NCBI RefSeq assembly: GCF_000172995.2
Contig: NC_014729.1
Location: 870,001 to 902,000 of the forward strand
Length of the DNA: 32,000 bases
From: Halogeometricum borinquense DSM 11551
GTDB taxonomy: Archaea > Halobacteriota > Halobacteria > Halobacteriales > Haloferacaceae
Direction: 5' to 3'
Below are positions 5,105-22,599 of this stretch, one piece after another (the first letter of the stretch is position 1; each line of letters starts with the position of its first letter). The notes under the pieces were generated by a model. The model was not told where the DNA came from and did not search any database. It saw only the letters and a program-made list of their open reading frames with translations. A program made the position numbers and the translations under genes.

Positions 5105-5893
5105 TCACTCGTCTAGTTCGATCCCGTCCATCGTGATCTCACTTGCGTCCGCAGAAAGTTCTTCAAACCGCCGTTCGGCCCACGAGTACGCAGTGTCTGT
5201 GTCGTTAACGATAACGCCGCGGATGCCGGTGTCGGTGTATACGACGACGCCGACTTCCGTCTCGGTTATCCACAGTCCGAACGAGAACGGAACATTACCC
5301 CGTGAAATCGTTATCCGGTCGTCTGTGAGTTGGGAGAGAAAGATATCTCGCGTACTGGGTGCGGCAATGAGTTGGTCGAGAACATCACTGTCGAGCACCA
5401 TCTCAACGTCGGCATCGCTCGCTTTCGCAGCATCGTAGAACGGCTTGAGATGGCCGGAGAGGACCGCAGGTGCGACGCCGCGGAGGTGACATGCTCCTTC
5501 GATACTCTCGAAGAGTCGTTGGATGACGCCATCGGGCATCTCCGGCATCGTCGTGTACACGTCTGCACCGTCGAGAAACGCCGAATCGAGCGGCGTATCC
5601 GGTGGGAGACAGCCGAGAACACCCCTTGCACTGCTCACTTGTTGCATCCGTTCGTGGAACGCTTCGACGGCTTCGAGAGCGCACTCTCCGGCGAGCGTCG
5701 CTTCGTACCGGCCGTCTCGCTGTGTCACCAACCCGACATCAAGGAGTTCCCGGATCGCTCGATCAACCGTCGAACGCGAACTCTCGACAACCTCTGTCAA
5801 CTCGCGCTTGGAGTGTGCTTCGAGAACGACTGCACGAAGGACCTGCTCGCGGGAGAGAGCGATATCTTCGATTCGTCGCCCGTCATCCGCCAT
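5105..5893 (-). CDS. Winged-helix (ArsR/MarR-like HTH) transcriptional regulator with a C-terminal sensor-like domain
   Basis: The N-terminal wHTH is LSREQVLRAVVLEAHSKRELTEVVESSRSTVDRAIRELLDVGLVTQRDGRYEAT, followed by a ~170-aa C-terminal domain of the kind common in haloarchaeal regulators. The ATG at 5893 is preferred; the track starts at a GTG at 5911. It ends 24 nt upstream of moaB on the same strand. Confidence 0.7.
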   Translation of the reverse strand: MADDGRRIEDIALSREQVLRAVVLEAHSKRELTEVVESSRSTVDRAIRELLDVGLVTQRDGRYEATLAGECALEAVEAFHERMQQVSSARGVLGCLPPDTPLDSAFLDGADVYTTMPEMPDGVIQRLFESIEGACHLRGVAPAVLSGHLKPFYDAAKASDADVEMVLDSDVLDQLIAAPSTRDIFLSQLTDDRITISRGNVPFSFGLWITETEVGVVVYTDTGIRGVIVNDTDTAYSWAERRFEELSADASEITMDGIELDE

Positions 5894-6084
5894 TGCCTCC
5901 CCATCACACACGACAGGTATGAATATTATGACTCACTGACGTGAGAACGCAATTCTGTCGTTCGAGTATCCCGCCCAGCCATCACAGACGGCACGCCGTT
6001 CGGAAGAGTCGTCGCGTGTCGAACTAACGGAAAACTGTGTATCGGAGACACGGGCTTTTGACATCTCCGTGCGAGTGGGTGACT

Positions 6085-14930: not shown

Positions 14931-15254
14931 TCAGTTGTATCCGCGCCACCGACGCCCACAGTTTTTGCACTTGAAGAATCGCGTCGGCGGTTCGTCGGCC
15001 GAGCCGGTCTGTTTGATGGTGTACCACGCCTCGCCGTGGCCGCAGTCTTCACAGGTCACGTCCGTCGCGGTGGGTTTGCCCTCGAAGTTTGCGCCTTCCT
15101 CGGTTTCGATCACGTCGGAGTCGTCCTGTGCCTCAGTGGAGACGAACTCCGACGCGAGGTCCGAGTCCTGCTCTTGTGTGGCACCGCAACTCGAACAGAC
15201 CATCTGGCCGTCCTGATTGTGCATCATCGAACCGCACTCGTCGCAGAACTGCAT
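14931..15254 (-). CDS. tfs: Transcription factor S (TFIIS-like cleavage factor / RpoM family)
   Basis: The N-terminal zinc ribbon is MQFCDECGSMM...VCSSCG. The C-terminal TFIIS-type ribbon is CEDCGHGEAWYTIKQTGSADEPPTRFFKCKNCGRRWR, which includes the acidic hairpin (SADEP). Confidence 0.9.
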   Translation of the reverse strand: MQFCDECGSMMHNQDGQMVCSSCGATQEQDSDLASEFVSTEAQDDSDVIETEEGANFEGKPTATDVTCEDCGHGEAWYTIKQTGSADEPPTRFFKCKNCGRRWRGYN

Positions 15255-17696: not shown

Positions 17697-18674
17697 TTAA
17701 TCGTTTCGCCGGATGTCCGCGCCGGTGTTTCGACCGCGTACGACGCGTACTTCACCGGCCACGTCCGCAGCAGCAAGCGCGGCCTCTCCTGCGTCGCGTG
17801 CCTCGTCTGCGTGTTCGGCGTCGGTGATGGCGTAGACGGCCGGTCCCCACGACGACTGTCCCGCACCGTAACAGGCGGGGTTGTCTTCGACGGAGGCGAC
17901 GAGTTCCCCGACCGGCGGACGGTAGACGCCGCCTTGCTCGTCGGCGTACCACGCGCCGTTGAGACGGCCGATTTCGGAGACTGCTTTTCCGAACCGTGAC
18001 GCGCTTCCGTCGGCAACTGCGGGGAGCAGTCGGCGCGAGAGCACGCCCGAGATGCGGTCTGCGATGTCTGGATCGGCGTGTTCGACCACAGAACGCATAC
18101 TTTCGTCTTCTTCGTCGCCGTTCCGTCCGGCGTCGGCGTCGGGAACGACGAGCAGAAAGCGCCAGTCGTCGGGGACGGCATGGCGAACGGCGACCGACGG
18201 AACGGTCCAGTCGCCGTCGGCCGGTCGGTCGGTGGTAAAGCGTGCCGTCGGATGGCCGGCGTCAACGAGGACGCCACCGGTTTCGAACGAGGCGACGCCG
18301 ATTCCGGATCGGCCGCCGCGGCCGAGACGAGGAGCGAGTTGCCGTACCGACACCTCGCGGTCGTTCGCGCGTCCGACTGCTACGAGCACGGCGAGCGCGA
18401 GTTGCGTCCCGCTCCCGAGACCGGCGTGTCGCGGAAGTGCTGACGACACCGTGACGTCGGCCCCCGGAACGTCGAGGATTTCGACCGCCGTTTCGACGTA
18501 GGGCCGAGCGTCCCGGTGTGAGCAGTCAATCCCGTCCGCTGGAGTCGCCGTAACGACGGTTTTCGGTTCGTCAAGACCGACACCGAGTCCGCCGTAGAGC
18601 CGTTGGTGGGCGAGGCTTAAGTTGAGAAAGCCGAAGTGGAGGCGAGCACCGGTCGAGACGCGGACGCGACTCAT
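17697..18674 (-). CDS. Beta-ribofuranosylaminobenzene 5'-phosphate (beta-RFAP) synthase homolog, GHMP-kinase superfamily
   Basis: VRVSTGARLHFGFLNL...RLYGGLGVGLDEP resembles the RFAP-synthase N-terminus (RxHxGxxDL...GGxG). A GHMP motif-2-like LPRHAGLGSGTQLALAV is also present. Confidence 0.78.
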   Translation of the reverse strand: MSRVRVSTGARLHFGFLNLSLAHQRLYGGLGVGLDEPKTVVTATPADGIDCSHRDARPYVETAVEILDVPGADVTVSSALPRHAGLGSGTQLALAVLVAVGRANDREVSVRQLAPRLGRGGRSGIGVASFETGGVLVDAGHPTARFTTDRPADGDWTVPSVAVRHAVPDDWRFLLVVPDADAGRNGDEEDESMRSVVEHADPDIADRISGVLSRRLLPAVADGSASRFGKAVSEIGRLNGAWYADEQGGVYRPPVGELVASVEDNPACYGAGQSSWGPAVYAITDAEHADEARDAGEAALAAADVAGEVRVVRGRNTGADIRRND

Positions 18675-18777
18675 CGGGCGAACTTCCGGACCGGCAAGTA
18701 TGTTGGTTTCGACGGTGGCAACTCTGGTCGGTGTTGTGAGTCACAGGTCGTTATGGTCGTCCGTACAAGGAGAGATG

Positions 18778-19235
18778 GTTCCGTTCTCCCGTCCGCCTCG
18801 GGTTGGGAACCCGACTGGCACCTCGACGATGAGGGCCAAAGGGCGGGGGGAGAACGGGGGGTGCCTTGGTCTGCCCAATGTGTCACCGAGGCGTGGAGGG
18901 GTGGGGTGGGAGCGGCCACGGCCCGGGAACACACGATTTCGGATGCGCCCCGGCGACCCGGGGCGCAGTCACGCTCTGCGTCGGGATAGGCGACAACGCG
19001 TACGACGTACGCGCCAGCTGACGACGGCTCGCTGCAGACCGCCGTCGCCTGCTATCGCCATCCGACTGCGGTGAGCGCATCTGCGGGCGCCCATGGTCAT
19101 CCGCCGGTCCTGCGGGACTCGGAACGTCGTCGGATTTGTGGGGGCGAAATGGACGCCCTGAATACGTCACCGCGTTTTCCGCTTGGGACGGGACGCACTT
19201 CAAGCGGGGAGACGCTGAATCAGGATTCAGTCGTT
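18778..19235. ncRNA. Candidate large structured RNA or structured 5' leader; family and strand unresolved
   Basis: There is no credible ORF; all frames give Arg/Pro/Gly-rich shadow peptides. The region stays GC-rich, unlike normal intergenic DNA here, and is dense with nested helices:
- 18781-18790:18848-18857 (10 bp) plus 18793-18797:18842-18846 (5 bp). This enclosing helix contains hairpins 18798-18814 (7 bp, loop GGG) and 18816-18838 (4+4 bp).
- 18863-18870:18885-18892 (8 bp, one G.U on the plus strand).
- A perfect 9-bp hairpin at 18945-18966 (GCGCCCCGG-CGAC-CCGGGGCGC).
- 18997-19013 (7 bp).
- 19022-19028:19041-19047 (7 bp).
- 19180-19208 (7 bp).
- 19215-19230 (6 bp). Confidence 0.45.
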
Positions 19236-19496
19236 TCAAGGGTTAATCCGCCCATTTAACTCAGTTTAATTCGGCTAAACTGTCGTCTCGAATCCGTCAA
19301 ACCATTCGGATACATGACAAAACACCCGATCACCATTGCGGCTAGACACACATGCCGGCAGCAGCAGGAACGGAAGCTCTGACTATGAACTGCGACCATT
19401 CACACTGTCCGCCTCGGATGCGGAAATATGCACGAAAGTGGTCACCTAAGCCGCACAGATCGGCGGCATTTGGTGTCGTTCGCCACTTCGTGACAG

Positions 19497-19514
19497 ATAA
19501 AAATACGAAAAACG
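19497..19514 (-). terminator. Oligo-T terminator candidate after the pyrG-guaA-small gene operon
   Basis: On the minus strand, two T5 runs (plus-strand aaaaa at 19499-19503 and 19508-12) begin 12 nt after the TAG stop at 19524-19526. Archaeal termination typically uses such T tracts. Confidence 0.5.
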
Positions 19515-19523
19515 AGGGGTCGG

Positions 19524-19847
19524 CTACTGTTCTGCGAGTTCCTCTGCGACCACGTCGGCCGTGAGGAGTGCGGGATCGACAGCGAGGTCAGTCTGTCCAC
19601 GGGCGTACTCCGGCAGGGAGTCGCGCGAGTACGTGACGATTCGAACCTCGGGATTTTCTTCGCGTGCGACGGGGATGATAGAGGCGTCGTCCATGTCCGT
19701 GAGGACGAGGGTGTCAGCCGAATCGATGCCCGCATCAACGATGGAGTCTCGGGTAGCGACGCCGTTGAGGCGCACCAAGTCGATTCCGAGGTCCGTCAGC
19801 GCGTCGCCGAGTCCGTCTTCGTCGGGTCCGGTGATGAGCACGGTCAT
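19524..19847 (-). CDS. Small Rossmann-like (TrkA-N/CoA-binding-like) protein, function unknown
   Basis: The ATG at 19847 overlaps the guaA stop (ATGA). The sequence [27 protein letters not shown]...[30 protein letters not shown] has a beta-alpha-beta pattern. The track's longer 143-aa version has a basic, non-haloarchaeal N-terminus and lies inside guaA. Confidence 0.65.
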
Positions 19848-20761: not shown

Positions 20762-22422
20762 TATGCTTGCACCTCCGCGTCCGCGACAATTTCACGTGCG
20801 TCCAGTTCGCCGAGTACAGCCTTCACGAAGCCGACGAACGGGGGACTTGCCCGATCCGGGCGCGAGCGGAACTCGGGATGGAACTGCGTCCCGAGGAAGT
20901 ACGGGTGGTCCGTCCGTTCGAGAATCTCCATGCGGTTGCCCGCTCGTCCGGAGAACGTCAGCGCGCCGTCTTCGAGGTCGTCGATGTAGTCGGGTGCAAC
21001 CTCGTATCGGTGACGGTGGCGTTCCGTACAGACGGTGTCGCCGTAGACGTGCGCCGCCAGCGAATCTTCGGTGATGTCCGTCTCGTGCGCGCCGAGACGC
21101 ATCGTACCGCCCATGTCTTCGGTCTCGTACTGTTCGGGGAGCAGATCGATAACGGGGTCGGACGTATCGGAGTCGATCTCCGCCGAGTGGGCGTCCTCGT
21201 GGCCGAGAACGTTCCGCGCGTGTTCGACGACGGCCATCTGGAAGCCGAGACAGAGACCGAGGAACGGAACGTCGTTCTCACGGCAGTAGCGAATCGCCTC
21301 GATTTTCCCGGCCGTCCCACGCGTCCCGAATCCGCCGGGAACGACGACGCCGTCGGCTTCTTTCAGACGGTTTTCGTGTTTGTCGAGCATCTCGTCTGAG
21401 TCCACCCAGAGGATGTTCACGTCGGTCTTCGTCTCGATACCGGCGTGCTTCAACGCCTCGTTGACGGACATGTAGGCGTCTTCGAGGTCGTACTTGCCAA
21501 CGAGAGCGATATCGACCTCTTGTTCGCGCTCGCGCGTAACGAGTTCGCGCCACTCGTTGTCGCGTTCGGGCTTCGGACGCGCCTCCGTCGAGAGGCTCAG
21601 TTGCTCCATCACGTACTCGTCGAGGCCTTCCTCTTCGACCATCAGCGGCACGTGGTAGATGTCCTCCACGTCGGAGTTCGAGAACACCGCTTCCGTGGGA
21701 ACGTCGCAGAACAGCGCAATCTTCTCTTTCGTGCTGGCGTCGAGTTTGTCCGGGCTTCGGCCGACGAGAATATCGGGTTGCAGGCCGATGCTCCGGAGTT
21801 CCTTTACGGAGTGCTGCGTGGGTTTGGTCTTCTGCTCGCCGTTTTTCGAGTACGGGACGAGTGTGACGTGAGTAAAGAGAATATCGTCGTCGTCTTCCTC
21901 GTGAGCGAACTGTCGAAGCGCTTCGAGGAACGGCATGCCCTCGATGTCACCCACAGTGCCGCCAACTTCGACGATACAGACGTCCGTCCCCTCGGCCGCC
22001 TCGCGGATACGCCGCTTGATGTCGTCGGTGACGTGCGGGATAATCTGGACCGTCTTTCCGAGGTAGTCGCCCGCGCGCTCCTTCTCGATGACGTGTTGGT
22101 ACGTTTTGCCCGTCGTGACGTTGTGGTCGGAAGTCATATCCTCCCCGAGGAATCGTTCGTAGTTCCCCAAGTCGAGGTCAACCTCGCCGCCGTCTTTCAG
22201 GACGTACACCTCACCGTGTTGGTACGGGTTCATGGTCCCGGCATCGACGTTCAGATACGGGTCAATCTTGACTGCAGTCACGTCGAACCCGGCGTTCGAG
22301 AGCAGTCTGCCCGTACTCGCGGCTGTGATGCCTTTGCCCAGTCCGGACATCACACCTCCTGTTACGAAAATGAACTTCCGACCCAGAGACGGGTCGTACC
22401 CGGTTTCGGGTTCCTTCGGCAT
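20761..22422 (-). CDS. pyrG: CTP synthase
   Basis: [17 protein letters not shown]..., then the GATase domain with GLCLGFQ and ...HRHRYEV. The ATG at 22422 is preferred over the track's 22473. The stop overlaps the guaA start by 1 nt (TAATG). Confidence 0.95.
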
Positions 22423-22599
22423 ACCGACTGTGAGCCAGCACAGGTCAAAACCGTTTCGGAGCGTCCGATTCATTGCCAGACACCCCCACGTTCCTCACTT
22501 CTGAGAGGTTCGAAGCACTCGATTCGGAAGCCGTTTGGCGGTTCGTTCGATGTGTGTCCGAACTGACTCCCGAACGCGAATCGTTTGCTGTTCTCTGTG

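Follow-up and report, generated by a model that had tools for sequence, protein, structure and literature searches.

A conserved, probable minus-strand structured RNA of an undescribed family in the Halogeometricum/Halopelagius clade

The stretch of DNA analyzed here, to which we refer as the window, comprises 32,000 nucleotides of the Halogeometricum borinquense DSM 11551 genome (contig NC_014729.1, positions 870,001 to 902,000), and its subject is a gap between genes on the minus strand, at 18675-19523, within which an earlier note, made from the letters alone, had proposed a large structured RNA or structured leader at 18778-19235. We find that the gap holds a structured RNA element that lies on the minus strand, has no coding capacity, belongs to an undescribed family and is conserved within, and restricted to, the Halogeometricum/Halopelagius clade. 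Its secondary structure is accompanied by covariation, and the DNA in front of it is homologous to the promoter region of a protein gene in other Haloferacaceae. Over the gap the window matches H. borinquense DSM 11551 identically (L082), and the nearby genes are all encoded on the minus strand, in the order pyrG, guaA, DUF7126, gap, RFAP synthase, KaiC-like ATPase, and further genes.

22473-20761, minus strand: pyrG, in the upstream neighborhood
20761-19844, minus strand: gene for the guaA C-terminal subunit, in the upstream neighborhood
19847-19524, minus strand: gene for a DUF7126 protein of 107 amino acids, the upstream flank of the gap
18674-17697, minus strand: RFAP synthase gene, with its ATG at 18674, the downstream flank of the gap

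Two H. borinquense assemblies have no gene call between DUF7126 and RFAP synthase, in agreement with the earlier description of the gap as gene-free, and the high content of guanine plus cytosine (GC) described there is likewise present, at 0.64-0.73 across 18750-19150, with a drop to 0.46-0.55 across 19200-19500. The closest species in our genome collection were H. limi (L001) and H. pallidum (L002), each with an RFAP synthase similar to that of the window (83% and 82% identity, respectively), and further relatives were gathered through homologs of RFAP synthase and DUF7126. By blastn, nhmmer, and MAFFT, both species align to the minus strand over about 19290-18790, and to none of the other intergenic regions within the same stretch of 13 kb. 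Bare sequence similarity means little here, because fourfold-degenerate sites of the flanking genes are still 50-68% identical between these species. Rates along the element are uneven, with invariant words of 16-19 nucleotides (CGCAGTCGGAYGGCGA, GCAGCGAG, CCACCCCACCC, GGCAGAC) adjoining the segment 19160-19082, which H. limi has lost and which cannot be aligned in the other lineages.

The core of the element, at 19083-18940 on the minus strand, consists of a Y-shaped three-way junction and a GC-rich hairpin.

18970-19079, minus strand: domain I, a Y-shaped three-way junction, defined by RNAalifold, single-sequence folds, the covariance models R1 and R2, and covariation
18944-18967, minus strand: hairpin II, GC-rich, 9 base pairs in H. 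borinquense, with five of six modeled pairs changed on both sides

Domain I is closed by a long helix, GCAGUCGGAUGGCGAUA paired with UUGUCGCCUAUCCCGAC-GC, which encloses hairpin 4 (19044-19022, with the conserved tip GCAGCGA) and hairpin 5 (19014-18996). These are the hairpins that had been folded by eye at 19022-19047 and 18997-19013, and both are real and conserved, as are the GC hairpin seen at 18945-18966, which is hairpin II, and the long-range pairing seen within 18965-19069, which corresponds to helices 1 and 2. The RNAalifold consensus of the three species on the minus strand contains 61 pairs, 10 of them with compensatory changes, and five single-sequence minimum free energy (MFE) folds independently yield the same Y-shaped junction. 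For the covariance model R1, two strains of H. borinquense served as input together with H. limi and H. pallidum; R2 is its retrained version. R1 finds five lineages outside its training set, namely Halogeometricum sp. S1BR25-6 (L096; 79 bits), L103/L104 (72 bits), L101 (63 bits), L093 (62 bits), and L102 (44 bits, E = 1e-5), and it finds nothing further in about 1.7 Mb, with no match in 78 other haloarchaeal loci. In an alignment of nine distinct sequences fitted to the model structure, both partners have changed in 17 of 49 pairs and pairing is kept in 92.8% of pair cells, which bears out the covariation expected of the helices; column shuffles give 6.7 +/- 1.8 both-side changes, with none of 500 reaching 17, and slid controls give 1-6. 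In a six-sequence set, 72% of the changed pair cells still pair.

The strand is indicated by the same nine-sequence alignment, in which G.U cells number 45 and A.C cells 12, and the minus strand was chosen because G.U outnumbers A.C to this extent. The proportion of paired cells is 85.0% when the complement is read, the fold of 18778-19235 lies at z = -5.53 relative to shuffles on the minus strand and at -1.93 on the plus strand, and the RNAalifold consensus of the plus strand is weaker. The earlier note had called the strand ambiguous, favoring the plus strand through its G.U pairs and offering the minus strand, with a TTAAAT at 19254-19259, as the alternative. It is the alternative that fits, as the promoter region containing the TTAAAT is kept in about 19 lineages; a plus-strand RNA is disfavored by its weaker consensus and the G.U/A.C asymmetry, and the TTAT at 18751-18754 that had been taken as a plus-strand promoter cue lies outside any conserved block.

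Beyond the core, in the 3' direction, the minus strand carries three further features.

18878-18934, minus strand: domain III, an interrupted hairpin of 17 base pairs with a 19-nucleotide apical loop, 74% C
18858-18875, minus strand: conserved box GGCAGACCAAGGCACCCC, largely unpaired, with more C tracts after it
18781-18857, minus strand: domain IV, a nested helix of 10 + 5 base pairs around two hairpins (MFE -50.1 kcal/mol, z = -5.26)

Domain III occupies the segment from hairpin II to the GGCAGA box, and it is this one long hairpin that the minus strand forms in place of the 8-bp helix once drawn at 18863-18892. Its loop is 18915-18897, CCGCUCCCACCCCACCCCU. In the predicted folds, a C-rich loop of 17-66 nucleotides (53-77% C; at least 70% in seven lineages) caps a long stem in eight of 10 Halogeometricum-type lineages, such that a single-stranded C-rich seed is conserved, and the sequences of the stems are unrelated among lineages. 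C-rich apical loops also occur in several Halopelagius-type lineages. Shuffling of the flanks yields C-loop hairpins of equal quality in 1-7% of the trials for each lineage. The changes within the species in the presumably transcribed part fall at loop or junction positions, one being an A to G at about 19019 and the other a CCCAC insertion of strain wsp4 that sits within the domain III loop; otherwise they fall at the center of the palindrome described below. The core of the conserved box (also denoted GGCAGACCRAGGCACCC), AGGCACCC, is found in 11 of the 13 element-carrying lineages, those of the Halopelagius type included; H. limi repeats a module of GGCAGAC plus C tract about three times in tandem, and L102 has ACGGCAC. 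The helix set at 18781-18857, domain IV, had also been proposed from the folding by eye, and it is very stable in H. borinquense, but its conservation is loose. H. pallidum and L096 have a weaker analogous enclosing helix, only the CGGGUU..AACCCG hairpin aligns, and conserved structure over 18740-18945 between H. borinquense and H. pallidum is weak.

At the 5' end of the element, a helix designated P1 encloses an insert that is variable between lineages.

19161-19173, minus strand: 5' strand of P1, GCGGUGACGUAUU, spanning the former start codon, the GTG at 19170-19168
19068-19081, minus strand: 3' strand of P1, ..GCGCUCACCGC, defined by the MFE and centroid folds and by partner counts
19082-19160, minus strand: variable insert enclosed by P1, absent from H. 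limi and different in H. pallidum/L096, L093, and L101

P1 is present in both the MFE and the centroid folds. The octamer that contains the start codon, GCGRUGAN, has a partner of 6-8 base pairs nearby in nine of nine non-coding lineages, and one of 3-5 base pairs in four protein-coding relatives. ATG finds a CAT as its partner, and GTG a CAC or a wobble variant. The UCACCGC at 19074-19068 can enter either P1 or helix 1, which compete for it.

The DNA immediately upstream of P1 contains three promoter-like features, and it is to these, together with the former start codon, that the 5' part of the originally proposed structure (19160-19235) belongs, as promoter and operator DNA and not as RNA structure. 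The hairpins that had been drawn there, at 19180-19208 and 19215-19230, lie in conserved promoter DNA and have no fold in H. limi.

19252-19282, minus strand: tandem AT-rich boxes, CAGTTTAGCCGAATTAAAC TGAGTTAAATGG, resembling a transcription factor B recognition element (BRE) and TATA box; candidate distal promoter, with a predicted start near 19237-19226
19215-19230, minus strand: palindrome CTGAATCC(T/G)GATTCAG, a candidate transcription-factor operator
19197-19203, minus strand: TTGAAGT box, a candidate TATA of the leaderless type exactly 33 nucleotides before the GTG, with a predicted start at about 19170

The AT-rich boxes are kept in all relatives (CCGAATTAA / CCGAATTTA), and the spacer that follows them varies in sequence at constant length, which is consistent with their putative role as a distal promoter. 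The position of the palindrome is kept in at least 13 lineages, and in the second H. borinquense strain it is a perfect palindrome of 16 nucleotides. Between the two H. borinquense assemblies (at about 19397 and 19212) we observed a 22-nucleotide duplication in the low-GC spacer and the T/G change that perfects the palindrome, CTGAATCCGGATTCAG, in the second strain. The 33-nucleotide spacing from TTGAAGT to the start codon is identical in seven of seven aligned lineages, four of which have a real ATG, and the spacer sequence varies; by a second count (offsets of 30 to GCGRTGA) the spacing is the same in nine of nine.

The lineages with a real ATG indicate where this promoter may have come from. 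Four other Haloferacaceae lineages (L013, L018, L025, and L054) have, downstream of DUF7126, the start of a gene whose product is secreted, acidic, and of low complexity, and the region upstream of this gene aligns with that of Halogeometricum, containing CCGAATTAA-type boxes, a palindrome TGAA..CGG..TTCA, GGTTGAAGTGG, 33 nucleotides, and the start codon, which is ATG in the protein-coding lineages and the GTG at 19170-19168 in H. borinquense. In addition, the L098 sequence MSAPRLIAHQSVAPVLRGG resembles the signal peptide of L063, MSANRLVAVALVTLLLVGG, over the first ~19 codons. The residual similarity to the parent gene is confined to the promoter, the 33-nucleotide spacing, the start codon, and this N-terminal trace in L098; the body is not a recognizable remnant, and tblastn of four to six parent proteins against the gap of the window and nine elements returned low-complexity noise only. 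Judging from these sequence comparisons, a plausible history, and the simplest one, is that a secreted-protein gene at this locus became defunct in the common ancestor of Halogeometricum and Halopelagius, its promoter and transcript surviving. The possibility of a decayed pseudogene, which the earlier note had raised as a ground for abandoning its RNA, is thus half right, in that the promoter, the start position, and signal-peptide traces are homologous to those of a gene, but what is conserved today is pairing and not frame.

Comparison of syntenic loci confirms the expectation of conservation in relatives, with the element present, as a gene-free segment of 600-850 nucleotides, in at least 13 lineages. 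Halopelagius fulvigenes, Halopelagius inordinatus, Halopelagius longus, and two metagenomic relatives have the same promoter architecture, followed by 600-800 nucleotides of gene-free C-rich sequence. At the loci examined the element occurs as a single copy and always after DUF7126, and it is missing from most haloarchaeal genera. An origin as a miniature inverted-repeat transposable element, other mobile element, or virus was considered and rejected, as there is no plasmid or phage match, one copy per locus, and a constant context. A pattern scan of metagenomes gave nine chance matches, none of which passes nhmmer or R1, and one of viral sequences gave at least 120 matches, with none of the 80 loci screened passing the model. 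That the RNA belongs to no recognized family, as first supposed, is supported by Rfam 15, whose models include 5S rRNA, riboswitches, HEARO, and OLE and which gives no match at the gathering score in the window or in nine homologous loci; a permissive search of 18500-19700 (E<=10) gave four chance-level matches, the best of which reaches 16.4 bits where the gathering score is 44, and the sole permissive match inside the element scores 13 bits. The covariance models of RNase P and of the signal recognition particle (SRP) RNA, whose motifs had been looked for by eye in vain, do not match even at E<=10, and no tRNA or transfer-messenger RNA was found. Searches of the literature brought up no account of the element.

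Several observations were made at the homologous and neighboring loci. In H. limi, a tandem repeat of 36-38 nucleotides in about three copies (L001 5306-5441; unit CACAGGCAGACGCAC.CACCACCCACCCGACACCCC) lies between the element and RFAP synthase, as does an extra gene of the TFS/RPB9 zinc-ribbon type with a TATA-like box of its own at 5578-5895; the sole TFS gene of H. borinquense sits further downstream, at ~14931-15254 in the window. In Halopelagius fulvigenes (L097 2373-2511), a run of 139 N, an assembly gap or masking, falls within the homologous element, which is uninterrupted in Halopelagius longus (L105). Between DUF7126 and the element, H. limi (L001 4542-4925, minus) and L096 (2393-2680, minus) carry, on the opposite strand, a small gene for an acidic protein; this gene is reduced to a 35-residue C-terminal remnant in H. 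pallidum (L002 ~5210-5315) and has left no trace in H. borinquense (19240-19523) or L093. Homologs of this small gene also occur in L023 and L040, and tblastn of it and of the H. limi TFS paralog against the gap returned nothing beyond noise. Two Haloferax loci (L005 4691-5154; L008 4700-~5160) have about 460 gene-free nucleotides after DUF7126 that are well conserved between both species, are unrelated in sequence to the Halogeometricum element, and have no Rfam match (L005 searched).

Whether the RNA is a gene of its own or the leader of what follows depends on its boundaries, for which there are two candidates.

19499-19512, minus strand: two runs of five T, TTTTTCGTATTTTT, 12 nucleotides past the DUF7126 stop
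18690-18735, minus strand: promoter-like block proximal to RFAP synthase, with CGAAA at -37..-33, ACATACTT at -29..-22, and AA at -11/-10 relative to the ATG at 18674

T-runs terminate haloarchaeal transcription, and those at 19499-19512, which also trail DUF7126 in L099, L105, and L097, probably terminate transcription of the pyrG-guaA-DUF7126 operon and would thus mark the upstream boundary of the element. The RFAP-synthase block, which we take to be a BRE and TATA box, aligns at all Halogeometricum-type loci and in genera without the element (L003, L014, and L040), and it is the downstream boundary, outside the RNA body. The earlier note had offered, as its minus-strand option, a structured leader running into the RFAP-synthase/KaiC-like gene string, and a long structured 5' leader that regulates this string in cis, by read-through, stability, or translation, would fit with the shared strand of the element and the downstream genes, with a possible switch formed by the competition of P1 with helix 1, and with the failure to find a T-run or hairpin terminator between 18860 and 18674 or in H. 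pallidum, L093, and L096 (the sigma-70/terminator scan is ill suited to archaea and was used solely for the absence of a minus-strand hairpin-plus-T terminator). It is weakened by the identity of the following gene, which differs between lineages (most Halogeometricum-type loci have RFAP synthase, H. limi has a TFS paralog, L098/L099 a cupin, and L100/L105 an M50 peptidase), whereas the upstream neighbor is DUF7126 throughout; by the RFAP-synthase block, which stands at leaderless spacing and is conserved where the element is lacking; and by the mostly leaderless character of haloarchaeal mRNAs. The element does not, then, precede one and the same gene that lacks a promoter. An independent RNA gene is favored because the downstream gene varies while DUF7126 is constant, RFAP synthase has its own promoter block, and the upstream operon ends in T5 runs, and we consider a leader unlikely, though worth bearing in mind.

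It could also be argued that the locus is a decaying and functionless relic of the secreted-protein gene, with helices that are by-products of GC content and shared ancestry. The homology of the promoter, the start position, and the N-terminal trace to a real gene would be expected of such a relic, as would the fast divergence of the insert, domain IV, and the Halopelagius-type bodies, and the fourfold-degenerate sites show that neutral positions are not saturated. A relic does not, however, account for 17 pairs changed on both sides, or for the 72% of changed cells that still pair when, by our own reasoning, about 30% would be expected of unconstrained sequence; nor would it produce the excess of G.U over A.C on one strand, the invariant words of 16-19 nucleotides beside a deleted insert, the retention of a 600-850-nucleotide segment in at least 13 lineages while the adjacent small gene was erased, or the recurrence of C-loop hairpins on unrelated stems. 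We judge this explanation improbable.

The C-rich loop has a counterpart in the DNA, in that the plus-strand G-runs opposite to it (18893-18915, GGAGGGGTGGGGTGGGAGCGG) approach a G-quadruplex motif. A DNA-level element, in which plus-strand G-runs (GGGGTGGGGTGGG and others) form quadruplexes, or the repeats serve as cruciforms or protein sites, would be compatible with the very high intracellular K+ of haloarchaea and with the runs of three or more G that stand opposite the C-rich loop in every lineage. Four such runs, the canonical quadruplex motif, are present in wsp4 (completed by its CCCAC insertion), L093, L096, L099, and L102, and because quadruplex motifs are reported to be under-represented in Halobacteria (PMC8044849), a conserved one stands out. 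The symmetry of a duplex nevertheless predicts equal numbers of G.T and A.C, and 45 and 12 are seen; compensatory changes preserve pairing far from the promoters, and the stems flanking the C/G tract covary although a quadruplex has no need of them. A purely DNA-level role is for these reasons very improbable.

Finally, the reading frames of the gap carry no sign of a protein. As had been remarked of the translations, every open reading frame (ORF) of the gap is rich in Arg, Pro, and Gly; none of eight ORFs has a Pfam or NCBIfam match at E<=1, and the longest on the minus strand (118 residues), the one ORF so searched, has no homolog among 5.8 billion proteins. Frames shift among species, with spacers of 18, 16, and 17 nucleotides separating the conserved words, and indels of 1, 2, 4, and 5 nucleotides, none a multiple of three, separate close relatives and strains, among them the 5-nucleotide CCCAC insertion between the two H. 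borinquense strains. Stops are scarce in all frames at 72-75% GC (0-3 per frame), and because of this open frames carry little information. A basic Arg/Pro-rich small protein translated from the conserved GTG/ATG, for which one could cite the 95-200 open codons after this start in seven of nine lineages and the SPQSDGD..RRSAASRR frame common to H. borinquense and L093, is scarcely credible when the frame closes after two codons in Halopelagius inordinatus (L099) and 26 in H. pallidum (the two lineages of nine with early stops), no frame is conserved across the indels, the predicted products are strongly basic against the acidic proteome of the host, and they have neither homologs nor domains.

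Three observations concern the genes upstream. A promoter-like block in front of pyrG, CGAAAC[GC]GTTTTGA .. CACA[GC]TCGGT ATG (window 22423-22475), is strongly conserved at leaderless spacing in many haloarchaeal genera, and the longest pyrG ORF (570 amino acids, from 22473) extends past the annotated start of the 553-residue protein at 22422. The DUF7126 gene and the guaA stop overlap by 4 nucleotides. Public records label homologs of DUF7126 as 'CTP synthetase', 'Trk K+ transport NAD-binding subunit', or 'voltage-gated potassium channel Kch', names that look like annotation carry-over from neighbors or from a weak fold resemblance.

The reading that we prefer is of a structured RNA on the minus strand, and we put the probability that its structure is selectively maintained at about 0.85 and that of the full reading, a stand-alone noncoding RNA, at about 0.55. 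Under the full reading, transcription would proceed from a conserved and probably regulated promoter formed by the boxes at 19282-19252, the operator at 19230-19215, and the TTGAAGT at 19203-19197. The old start codon would be buried in P1, which may block translation and cap the 5' end, and the RNA would run, 5' to 3', through P1, the insert, the junction (19079-18970), the GC hairpin (18967-18944), the C-loop hairpin (18934-18878), the box (18875-18858), and domain IV (18857-18781). It may act as a stand-alone regulatory or scaffold RNA, with the junction as the scaffold and the C-rich loop and the box binding either a protein or an RNA rich in G. As a target of the C-loop, a G-rich box found in front of pyrG was rejected for want of conservation and because it precedes the promoter and falls outside the mRNA. 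Several points weigh against this preferred reading. Its transcription, 5' and 3' ends, stand-alone status, and binding partner are predictions, and partner and function in particular are guesses; near-complements of the C-loop that could serve as a G-rich target occur at chance level in the 32-kb window. The want of a terminator before RFAP synthase makes a read-through leader possible, and part of the similarity between species is plain shared ancestry, as the fourfold-degenerate sites indicate. The alignments behind the final counts, having been fitted to the model structure, are biased toward pairing, and the lineages in them are related. Moreover, R1 and R2 find no domain I in the Halopelagius-type loci, which confines it to Halogeometricum-type lineages, and the Halopelagius-type bodies align poorly, with a consensus fold that supports P1 only. 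In a further extension, a secreted-protein gene would have lost its frame, retained its regulated promoter, and been converted into an RNA with new folds under selection, namely the start codon locked in P1, the junction, and the displayed C-rich loop. As the element always adjoins the CTP-synthase/GMP-synthase operon and consists of C tracts, with G-runs in the template, this RNA could be a regulator that senses nucleotide pools, or K+ through quadruplexes, in connection with the pyrimidine/purine balance. The extension is speculative and we think it rather unlikely.

Large structured noncoding RNAs of unknown function that comparative genomics has brought to light (see also PMC5737381) include OLE, GOLLD, HEARO, and bacterial RNAs of the raiA type. 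The element, which in its workings would be closest to these, resembles them in its length of hundreds of nucleotides, its multiple domains, its compensatory helices and single-stranded boxes, and its fixed neighborhood, and it differs from them in being archaeal and restricted to one Haloferacaceae clade, in a fast-evolving body (domain I is conserved at the genus level), in its proposed origin from a protein gene, and in matching no Rfam family. With archaeal RNase P and SRP RNA it shares the range of 300-450 nucleotides, a high GC content, densely nested helices, and a gene-free gap; unlike them it matches neither model at E<=10 and is not universal, being absent from most haloarchaeal genera. 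The RsaE/RoxS RNAs of Firmicutes base-pair via C-rich loops to G-rich, Shine-Dalgarno-like targets, and the element is similar in presenting a single-stranded C-rich tract atop a stable hairpin, C tracts in its linkers, and its own, apparently regulated, promoter. It is, however, at least 300 nucleotides long, its loop consists of 17-66 nucleotides of CCCAC-type repeats in place of a short UCCC motif, and the mostly leaderless mRNAs of haloarchaea make the masking of ribosome-binding sites less obvious as a mechanism. This likeness and that to the large structured RNAs are leads and do not make the element a member of either group. Finally, long noncoding RNAs derived from pseudogenes are described for eukaryotes (PMC4316772). 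As in those RNAs, the promoter of a former protein gene appears to have outlived its coding capacity, whereas here the body has a newly constrained fold and lacks similarity to the parent beyond the first codons. We know of no described prokaryotic precedent with covariation support for an RNA derived from a pseudogene.

Few structured RNAs are known from haloarchaea beyond the universal ones, and fewer have covariation support. The candidate described here offers a defined anatomy, a clear strand, a promoter predicted to be regulated, and a natural comparison in the sister genera that have the protein gene in its place. For annotation, an 'empty' gap of 850 nucleotides would contain an RNA gene between two promoters, with a terminator ahead of the first. 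For the biology of the clade, the locus may provide a tractable case of how a noncoding RNA arises from a dead prokaryotic gene, and of the role that C-rich loops play at molar K+.

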